In this document: piece after piece, positions 23,233 through 30,283 of the stretch
Numbering within the stretch: position 1 is the stretch's first letter
Layout: the number at the start of each line of letters is the position of its first letter
DNA from: a virus
IMG/VR virus record: IMGVR_UViG_3300007735_000795
Span: 1-64,000 of that record
Strand: one strand, 5' to 3'
Length of the DNA: 64,000 nucleotides
Made by a program: the position numbers and the translations under genes
The notes under the pieces: generated by a model
Databases searched by the model: none
What the model saw: the letters and a program-made list of their open reading frames with translations, nothing else
What the model was told of the DNA's origin: nothing

Positions 23233-23354
23233 TAGTCAAGGTAGGACTTGAACCTACACGCCTTTGAGGCTGGCAATCAATGTTTCCTCGAAACATGATT
23301 TGCGTCTACCGCGAATATCATCCCCAGGGCTAATATTCTTTTCGCCACTTGACT
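23233..23354 (-). ncRNA. tRNA-shell RNA copy 1 (Leu-like; hairpin inserted in the D-loop, extended anticodon stem)
   Basis: Acceptor AGTCAAG/CTTGACT+A, TGGCGAAA..GGTAGACGC, T-arm GTAGG-TTCAAGT-CCTAC. Confidence 0.7.
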
Positions 23355-29073: not shown

Positions 29074-29289
29074 TTAGAAGGTCAACTGACGCTCAGAATT
29101 CTTCTGACGTCTACGAGAAATACTGTACATTGCATTTGCAACCGGCTGATTGATCGAGCGGTTACCGTTGACAATGTTAGAAATGTGACTGGTAGAATAA
29201 CCTGTCATGTCTGCGATACGGTTAGTATCACCTTCACGCTTACGAGCGGAATAGAAAGCCAATTTGGCTGTTGAATTTAAACGACGCAT
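29074..29289 (-). CDS. XRE/Cro-like helix-turn-helix protein
   Basis: RIADMTGYSTSHISNIVNGNR. Confidence 0.7.
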   Translation of the reverse strand: MRRLNSTAKLAFYSARKREGDTNRIADMTGYSTSHISNIVNGNRSINQPVANAMYSISRRRQKNSERQLTF

Positions 29290-29379
29290 AATTATTAATT
29301 TAATTTAACTTATTAATTTATACCTGTAATATAATAGGCCTCTATAAGAAGCCTAGTTATTTTTAAATTTTCTTTTTAG

Positions 29380-29488
29380 TAGTCAGGACAGGATTCGAAC
29401 CTGTAAAATCTTTTATTTGGTTTAGGGTAGTTACTATTCCTATCTCCTTCCAAAACATATAGCGTCTAACCAATTCCGCCACCTGACT
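29380..29488 (-). ncRNA. tRNA-shell RNA copy 2 (no canonical anticodon arm)
   Basis: AGTCAGG-TGGCGGAATTGGTTAGACGC-[~57 nt irregular hairpin]-ACAGGTTCGAATCCTGT-CCTGACT-A. Confidence 0.75.
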
Positions 29489-29627
29489 ATGTTTTATGTT
29501 TAATGTATTTTCTTATACCTAAACATTTAATAACATGGAGTTCTACCTTAAACCATCTCTTGAATTTCACCCACCATGTGTCTTTCTCCATTTTATCTAA
29601 TATCCTTTGAAATGTTTTACTTCTCAT
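29487..29627 (-). CDS. 46 aa basic/aromatic peptide between two tRNA-shell repeats
   Basis: MRSKTFQRILDKMEKDTWWVKFKRWFKVELHVIKCLGIRKYIKHKT*; A-rich leader; TAG overlaps the 5' end of copy 2. Confidence 0.55.
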   Translation of the reverse strand: MRSKTFQRILDKMEKDTWWVKFKRWFKVELHVIKCLGIRKYIKHKT

Positions 29628-29642
29628 TACTTTTATTTTTAG

Positions 29643-29729
29643 TAGTCAGGACAGGATTCGAACCTGTATCGTTGAATTACCCAGCTTCAACTGCTTAAGT
29701 ATAGCGTATACCAATTCCGCCACCTGACT
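29643..29729 (-). ncRNA. tRNA-shell RNA copy 3 (no canonical anticodon stem)
   Basis: AGTCAGG-TGGCGGAATTGGTATACGC-[~36 nt, GTTGAA/TTCAAC hairpin]-ACAGGTTCGAATCCTGT-CCTGACT-A. Confidence 0.75.
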
Positions 29730-29735
29730 ATGTTT

Positions 29736-29943
29736 CCCCACCTTGAGATTACTGGTGAGTAGATGTATCGGTTTTCTTTCTTTCAATAAACCTGCGGGTC
29801 TTACCCTCTTAAAATTAGTCAAACTACTTGGAGCCTCTGTTACCTAGCTTTATCCCAAAGAGACTGGCGTTTAAGGATGTCCAGTCCAATACCCTATTCA
29901 TTGTTTAAGTCTTGAATTAAAGACTCTGAGTATCTCTTACTCA
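29736..29943 (-). ncRNA. structured ncRNA candidate (~208 nt)
   Basis: Hairpins TGAGTA/TACTCA, GAGTCTT/AAGACTT, GACTGG/CCAGTC, GGGT/ACCC, GGTTT/AAACC, AGTAG/CTACT, CTCACC/GGTGGG; no ORF; bounded by tRNA-type elements. Confidence 0.7.
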
Positions 29944-29946
29944 TAG

Positions 29947-30032
29947 TACCCGGGGAGGGACTCGAACCGGCATTGCTGTTTTTAGCAGCAGCATTTTAAG
30001 TGCTGCACGTATACCTATTTCAGCACCCGGGC
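29947..30032 (-). tRNA. tRNA-Leu(TAA), with mismatches in the D- and T-stems
   Basis: GCCCGGG/CCCGGGT acceptor, CAGCA-CTTAAAA-TGCTG anticodon arm, long variable arm, GCCGG-TTCGAGT-CCCTC T-arm. Confidence 0.75.
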
Positions 30033-30076
30033 AAGTGTGGGCCTCGCACCCACTCGGGAGCATTTGTAACCTCCAA

Positions 30077-30283
30077 TTAGGCCGCAGCCGGTGCTTCAGA
30101 CGGTGACTCGACCTTTTTAGTGGCCGGACGTCCACGTTTTACTACACCGCCGTTTGCAGCGGCACGCATTGCTCTAGCCGCTAAACGGGCTTGACGAGCT
30201 GAATTTTCTACTACTGGTCTGCCTTTGCGACCTGCTACTTTTACTTCTACTGCCGGTGCAGTTGTTTTTACTTTTTTACTCAT
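30077..30283 (-). CDS. small basic AT-hook/histone-like protein
   Basis: RKGRP and KRGRP motifs; Ala/Lys/Arg-rich. Confidence 0.65.
   Translation of the reverse strand: MSKKVKTTAPAVEVKVAGRKGRPVVENSARQARLAARAMRAAANGGVVKRGRPATKKVESPSEAPAAA

Follow-up and report, generated by a model that had tools for sequence, protein, structure and literature searches.

A 208-base element on the minus strand of the window (the whole stretch of viral DNA analysed here, 64,000 nucleotides, positions 1 to 64,000 of IMG/VR record IMGVR_UViG_3300007735_000795) is, judged by comparison of homologous sequences, a genuine non-coding RNA gene. It forms a conserved block that ends where the flanking tRNAs begin. Its fold, shown by covariation among the homologs, has a hairpin at either end; between them lie, in 5′ to 3′ order, three tandem H-type pseudoknots and two further hairpins. 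The same kind of comparison indicates that a 5-bp kissing contact joins the first and last hairpin loops. As far as tested, the family and its fold are new: they lie outside Rfam 15 and the literature searched. The gene is known in kind, as one of the stable non-tRNA RNAs that occur within phage tRNA operons. Its product is probably a stable structured RNA of about 215 nt that RNase P and RNase Z excise from the transcript of the tRNAs and that acts in trans, perhaps as a binder or decoy.

The record that holds the window is a 98.8-kb IMG/VR virus with an estimated completeness of 61%. The phage is a Flavobacterium-phage-like myovirus. In its baseplate wedge protein it shares 44.6% identity with vB_FspM_immuto, a Flavobacterium myovirus of 160 kb, and from this resemblance a Bacteroidota host is likely. 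Upstream of the element lies tRNA-Leu(UAA) (29947–30032, minus strand), found by ARAGORN and scored at 29.4 bits by the Rfam tRNA model. Downstream is a tRNA-Leu-like 'shell' (29642–29729, minus strand), recognized by both ARAGORN, which calls it Leu-AAG, and the Rfam tRNA model. The discriminator A of tRNA-Leu(UAA) is base 29947; three nucleotides (CUA) separate it from U1 of the element at 29943. The last G of the element is 29736, followed by six nucleotides (AAACAU) and then, from 29729, by the shell. These are the boundaries that the sequence-only reading had drawn, and its coordinates are correct. Element position p below corresponds to window coordinate 29944 − p. The predicted mature RNA of about 217 nt, with ends deduced from tRNA processing rules, would extend over 29730–29946 (minus strand); the covariance model of the family, R1, matches 29730–29949 with 212 bits. 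Across homologs, the lead 5′ of U1 is conserved as CAA (CUA in the window) and the 3′ tail as AAA(CAU). The phage record carries one copy of the pseudoknot RNA. A terminator-like hairpin at 29355–29335 closes the tRNA and non-coding RNA unit, and a copy of a promoter-like repeat is found upstream of it at about 30450. This repeat of about 57 nt (TTTGG...CGTATATTTAA...) is present in eight copies between 24341 and 30873 in minus-strand sense, where it precedes small genes. It is similar to the −33/−7 promoters of Bacteroidota and marks a dense early-gene region around the tRNA and RNA cluster.

It is hardly credible that the element is not an RNA gene at all, and is instead a small protein-coding gene or a conserved DNA site such as a promoter, an origin or a recombination site. 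The one point in favour is a 58-aa frame with a TTG start that covers the 3′ part. This frame continues into the tRNA, and the substitutions seen among homologs are compensatory pair changes rather than codon-like ones. The strand of the element is, moreover, strictly that of the tRNAs. No other open reading frame overlaps it, in agreement with the earlier statement that the region holds none.

The family is large. Eight loci retrieved by way of an unrelated tRNA motif already held full-length homologs of 70–80% identity. A scan with a 17-mer of the 5′ hairpin finds at least 119 viral contigs in IMG/VR, and a scan for variants of the P1 loop (the loop of that hairpin) adds 18 further members. 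Full-length matches to R1, with 50–218 bits, amount to at least about 134 IMG/VR viral loci and at least 103 distinct sequences. Different sets serve different purposes: an alignment of 75 sequences for the first reading, 91 distinct sequences for the pairing statistics, 101 for the kissing loop and 103 for genomic context. Among prokaryotes, sampled as one genome for each of 185,579 species, the 17-mer has 33 matches. The only full member among these is on a Saprospirales MAG contig (L252, 177 bits); a Bacteroidia MAG (L257) holds a family copy cut off at the contig end. No cultured carrier phage was found: the window copy and two further members had no blastn match in 50,697 GenBank phage records, and R1 detected no copy in the nearest cultured relatives by baseplate protein, Flavobacterium phage immuto and Microcystis phage Mel-JY01. 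R1 likewise finds no copy in a 484-kb uncultured phage.

Several members depart from the common size. Insertions of 50–70 nt occur in loop 3 of pseudoknot B (L181, L204, L252, L134 and L126) or in the Py hairpin (L091, L171, L124, L152, L072 and L201), giving totals of up to 270–296 nt. The insertions fall at these two fixed points, expansion sites tolerated by the fold. One array holds a second, very divergent copy (L156:2443-2638, plus strand; 50 bits) about 500 nt downstream of the canonical one. It keeps the three pseudoknots, rebuilt from unrelated sequences, as well as the Px and Py hairpins and both terminal hairpins, and its terminal loops, CAAACCGCA and AUAAGGGGUA, are complementary at four of five pairs, with one G.G mismatch. 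At another locus the element is shortened to its 5′ hairpin joined straight onto the 3′ hairpin (L160:4139-4180, plus strand; UGAGUAAGAGAUACUCACUGGAAUCUCAGGUGGGG). The sequence ACUCAC recurs in P1 and in the 3′ hairpin, and this short version, probably a remnant, looks as if the stretch between the two repeats had been deleted.

Membership of a known class was sought widely. At the gathering threshold, Rfam places nothing on the element within the window. When all 4227 families of Rfam 15 were run with cmscan at E ≤ 10 and permissive filters over 29200–30200, nothing was found inside it; 18 related loci searched at E ≤ 1 gave nothing overlapping it either. The cmscan search that had been proposed as a check on novelty thus leaves the novelty standing. 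The literature search returned no paper that describes the family, with a catalogue of 10,006 IMG/VR candidates (PMC10690425) lying outside its reach. It is very improbable that the element is a much-diverged GOLLD, ROOL, manA, raiA, tmRNA, RNase P RNA, group I intron or broken tRNA. The string of H-type pseudoknots does recall tmRNA, and the setting among tRNA genes brings GOLLD, ROOL and manA to mind. Against this stand the null result with 4227 families and 18 other loci, the failure of ARAGORN to find a tmRNA, and the lack of any tRNA-like domain or tag reading frame. ARAGORN and the Rfam tmRNA models agree in giving no match, and the ends of the element form separate hairpins. The tRNA cloverleaf model (RF00005) finds nothing inside the element, its matches stopping at 29947 and resuming at 29729. 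The group I intron model (Intron_gpI) has no match, and the flanking tRNAs are complete, which argues against an intron, and of varied identity. The raiA and RNase P RNA models do not match the element.

A single sequence gives little sign of the fold. The minimum free energy of the window copy is −45.8 kcal/mol, no better than chance (z = −0.37 against dinucleotide shuffles), so the structure is not evident from one sequence and is shown by the comparative data. In an R1-based alignment of 91 distinct homologs, 83.4% of cells are paired, against 35–48% in slid controls. Double changes are seen at 50 of the 60 pairs, and the observed values are reached by none of 500 shuffles. For the four crossing helices, which did not enter the fitting of the alignment, the paired share is 82%, against 28–52%, and again no shuffle of 500 reaches this. 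RNAalifold on a MAFFT alignment recovers 17 pairs only. The search for homologs and covariation that the sequence-only reading had called for has thus yielded a family with compensated pairings. Every stem which that reading listed is present in the sequence. Its multi-stem junction is largely replaced by three tandem pseudoknots, which it had overlooked.

The fold begins with the P1 hairpin (positions 1–17; 29927–29943, minus strand), a stem UGAGU/ACUCA (1–5/13–17) carrying the loop AAGAGAU. It is 99% paired, as holds for the UGAGUA/UACUCA stem read from the single sequence, and rare variants show C:G and A:U double changes. A loop of 7 nt with five kissing pairs is suggested by one homolog, L033, which loses the A6:U12 pair yet keeps 12:195. 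Pseudoknot A follows (19–48; 29896–29925, minus strand). Its stem S1 is AGUCU/AGACU (19–23/32–36), its stem S2 is AUUCA/UGAAU (27–31/44–48), and its loop 3, UAAACAA, is A-rich. S2 is 95% paired with 25–37 double changes per pair; S1, which played no part in fitting the alignment, still reaches 88%. Pseudoknot B (49–82; 29862–29895, minus strand) consists of S1 AGGGU/AUCCU (49–53/66–70) and S2 GACUGG/CCAGUC (58–63/77–82). Each stem is 73% paired, a value limited by alignment quality in this variable region, and double changes occur at all pairs. Other subfamilies rebuild the knot from other sequences, for example CUCGC/GCGAG with AUGUC/GACAU. Two stems listed from the single sequence, GAGUCUU/AAGACUU (here AGUCU/AGACU) and GACUGG/CCAGUC, are therefore real, and each proves to be half of an H-type pseudoknot.

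Pseudoknot C (86–122; 29822–29858, minus strand) has a two-part S1, UUGG/CCAA (86–89/113–116) and AGCU/GGCU (95–98/109–112), which is 88–90% paired. Its S2 joins AAC (103–105) to GUU (120–122), the latter strand coming just after the invariant GUA at 117–119. On fixed alignment columns S2 is 61% paired, in a stretch poorly aligned column by column, and a longest-run test against shuffled loops gives a weak difference (5.1 versus 4.4). What supports S2 instead is that its two strands stay complementary through more than 12 different sequence types, among them UCACA/UGUGA, GAUCCU/AGGAUU, GGUUC/GAACU and UGGCAU/AUGCUG.

Beyond the pseudoknots, the small Px hairpin (137–148; 29796–29807, minus strand) pairs 137–139 with 146–148 and U141 with A145, around an invariant bulged G140 and the triloop A142-A143-G144. 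Pairs 138:147 and 139:146 are 99–100% paired with 10–32 double changes, and 141:145 is U:A in 51 sequences and G:C in 38. The hairpin earlier drawn as GGGU/ACCC thus exists, in a different register. Mutual information links A143 in the Px triloop (29801) to U181 (29763, minus strand), in the strand just before the 3′ hairpin. This pair is A:U in 49 sequences and U:A in 35, with 93% standard pairs, and appears to be one long-range tertiary base pair of presumed geometry. The Py hairpin (149–177; 29767–29795, minus strand) pairs 149–156 with 170–177 below an A-rich loop. Its core, GGUUU/AAACC (152–156/170–174), is a stem proposed before and borne out by comparison; its base extends by C.A and A.G, for which other subfamilies have A:U and U:A. 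The 3′ hairpin (185–207; 29737–29759, minus strand) has the stem CUCACC/GGUGGG (185–190/202–207) and the loop AGUAAUCUCAA. As a terminal stem it, too, had been anticipated; it is 94% paired, with double changes at all six pairs. The single-stranded GUA at 117–119 and CUAC at 182–185 are invariant.

Two helices were given up. The junction stem AGUAG/CUACU of the sequence-only reading fails on comparison: its outer pairs are 59–65% paired, its changes are uncompensated, and C185 covaries with G207. A closing helix between 1–6 and 183–188 is complementary but invariant, with uncompensated changes. P1 and the 3′ hairpin are preferred to both helices.

The kissing strands are GAGAU in the P1 loop (positions 8–12; 29932–29936, minus strand) and AUCUC in the 3′ hairpin loop (positions 195–199; 29745–29749, minus strand). 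In the first set of sequences the two were near-invariant, possibly an artefact of searching by P1 sequence, and for this reason the P1-loop variants were scanned for. Among 101 distinct sequences, 98 keep all five pairs, a result that upholds the 5′–3′ loop–loop pseudoknot proposed for the window copy. GAGAU/AUCUC itself is found in 73 of the 101. Twenty have the wobble intermediates GAGGU, GGGGU or GGGAU, each with AUCUC. Three have GAAGU/ACUUC, with two double changes, and single sequences have GAAGU/AUUUC and AAGAC/GUCUC. Compensatory changes thus affect three of the five pairs. When P1 loops carrying a pyrimidine at position 11 were searched for, the 23 hits were chance matches, and none was a member of the family.

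The same covariation is expected whether the loops pair within one molecule or between molecules. GAGAU and AUCUC could accordingly pair head to tail between molecules of about 215 nt, building rings, cages or filaments from RNA alone. We regard this as possible but doubtful. The complementary loops sit on terminal hairpins and are near-invariant while all the stems drift. Phage manA RNAs of less than 200 nt form 8-, 10- and 60-mers through kissing loops (bioRxiv 10.64898/2026.07.01.735769). In ROOL, covariation had predicted one kissing loop to be a tertiary contact, and this loop was found to join separate molecules (PMC12286853); ROOL and GOLLD are likewise situated near tRNAs (PMC5737381). 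One family member (L209) shares its array with a weak manA-like match of 31 bits. The element itself, however, has no homology to manA, ROOL or GOLLD, and an intramolecular clamp is the simpler account of the covariation. The 143:181 pair and the tandem knots, moreover, already suggest a closed monomer.

The genomic setting is highly regular with respect to tRNAs. In all 103 distinct homologs the RNA is on the tRNA strand, and no tRNA of opposite strand is present within 300 nt. The end of a tRNA or shell falls within 5 nt upstream in 68 of the 103, and a tRNA or shell starts within 10 nt downstream in 72. At least 12 identities are represented among the flanking tRNAs: Asp, Pro, Ser, Leu, Met, Gln, Glu, Tyr, Thr, Gly, Ile and Arg. 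The ends of the RNA thus meet varied tRNAs of the same strand in about 70% of the distinct homologs, which fits the discrete non-coding RNA gene that had been postulated. About 30% of members have no recognized tRNA on one side, so other ends or promoters are possible for these. Shells are frequent companions: they directly adjoin the pseudoknot RNA in 40 of 91 distinct homologs, and 63 of 91 loci have a shell at some place on the strand of that RNA. The window has three such tRNA-Leu-like shells (29380–29488, 29642–29729 and 23233–23354, minus strand), with acceptor, D and T arms in common and unrelated interiors. Shells and pseudoknot RNA may belong to one module.

This setting also bears on a purely local role, in which the element would be a cis-acting spacer of the tRNA polycistron that guides or orders cuts by RNase P, Z or E, or blocks exonucleases, and would have no role once released. 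The element does always fill a 'tRNA slot', in the orientation of the tRNAs and with fixed spacers of 3 nt and 6–7 nt, and blocking exonucleases is a possible property of pseudoknots. Such a role nevertheless appears unlikely. About 200 nt with three covarying pseudoknots, a clamp and invariant loops exceeds the needs of spacing or protection, and most tRNA junctions in the same arrays are spaced by a few nucleotides only. Most arrays also have a single copy, and the tRNAs next to it differ widely in identity.

Protein neighbours are less regular. Across 91 loci, surveyed over a 5-kb neighbourhood, there is no regular neighbour, and no neighbouring family is present in more than 17. Most frequent are an RNaseH-like protein (17 of 91 loci) and the clusters HNH, DUF932, cREC_REC and T5orf172. 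Proteins with the RNaseH-like domain (PF04308) lie within 5 kb of the arrays at L199:1764-2294 and 16 other loci, and cREC_REC proteins (cyclic-phosphate processing receiver) at L158:5630-6082 and eight others. This suggests that RNA repair or processing genes travel near the arrays, though not consistently. Several classes of non-coding RNA are common to the same tRNA arrays. Near-threshold matches to freshwater-1 RNA (RF02979; gathering score 72) occur at L196:2050-2111 (69.4 bits) and L150:996-1056 (61.9 bits). The weak manA-like match noted above (L209:3883-4191) compares with a gathering score of 55.2, and L214 has another.

Among characterized phages, T4 offers a close parallel in arrangement. 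Its small stable RNAs rnaC (species 1, 139 nt) and rnaD (species 2, 119 nt) are, like the element, encoded on the same strand as the tRNAs without being tRNAs themselves. Spacers of 1–6 nt separate them from tRNA-Arg and from each other, and their ends are presumably set by tRNA processing. Both are shorter than the element and come from the enterobacterial T4, whereas the present family is found in uncultured phages. R1, run with filters off over T4 positions 69800–72200, scores 3.6 bits at best, with no homology to rnaC or rnaD. To our knowledge, neither of these RNAs has an established function, a triple pseudoknot or a kissing contact.

Tandem H-type pseudoknots occur in tmRNA (PK1–PK4) and in the upstream pseudoknot domain that precedes the tRNA-like structure of tobacco mosaic virus. 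As in the element, the knots follow one another head to tail, and a tRNA or tRNA-like module adjoins them. The element differs in that it has no tRNA-like domain and no tag frame, and its adjacent tRNA is a separate gene of variable identity.

GOLLD (RF02032) and ROOL are structured RNAs of phages and prophages that, like the element, are often found beside tRNAs (PMC5737381, PMC12286853), a likeness of context and not of membership. They are also rich in pseudoknots and kissing loops. At about 600–800 nt, with ornate many-way junctions, they are 3–4 times larger than the element (208–217 nt), and their secondary structures differ. Their cages are shown by cryo-EM. Neither the GOLLD covariance model, which covers the conserved 3′ domain, nor that of ROOL has a match in 29200–30200 (E ≤ 10) or on the element in 18 other loci. 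The sequence-only reading had offered two options, a compact relative of these classes or a new class. The absence of covariance model matches, the size and the architecture speak against the first; the second holds as far as tested, that is, for Rfam 15 and GenBank phages. The manA RNA (RF01745) is closer in size: it is phage-associated, pseudoknotted and shorter than 200 nt, with kissing loops. It is described as a 5′-UTR motif, whereas the element sits between tRNAs, and its model has no match on the element at E ≤ 10 or on the element in the 18 other loci.

The reading that we favour, a processed RNA that works in trans, can be laid out in stages. (i) The RNA would be transcribed as one slot of the tRNA polycistron. 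(ii) Its 5′ end would be freed by RNase Z or by 3′ trimming of the upstream tRNA. (iii) Its 3′ end would be freed by the RNase P cut at +1 of the downstream tRNA or shell. The conserved CAA lead, the AAA tail and the ends that abut tRNAs form the pattern expected for such release by RNase Z and RNase P. (iv) The product would be a compact, closed particle, nuclease-resistant and highly stable. (v) During infection the particle would act in trans. Most probably it would bind or sequester a host factor, whether protein or RNA, that serves translation, tRNA metabolism or defence; such a role would fit what phage tRNA arrays do in general. The recognition surface would be provided by the kissing loops, which are near-invariant, together with the invariant single-stranded GUA (117–119) and CUAC (182–185). 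The binder or decoy role is put forward as a tentative conjecture.

Phage tRNA arrays hold many non-tRNA RNAs of unexplained role, among them T4 rnaC and rnaD (for 50 years), GOLLD, ROOL and manA, the last three now known to form RNA cages. The present family adds more than 100 distinct sequences and a fold that is unusually intricate and well supported for about 215 nt. Should the kissing contact be intermolecular, protein-free head-to-tail rings or cages would result, another RNA-only assembly after ROOL, GOLLD and manA, built on a different fold of three tandem pseudoknots. That would point to RNA-only assembly as something phage tRNA arrays do in general, for a purpose still to be explained. 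The frequent company of tRNA-Leu-like shells hints at a common RNA-based module in freshwater Bacteroidota phages. If the function of the processed RNA is tied to host takeover or counter-defence, the family would be a new RNA player in that conflict.
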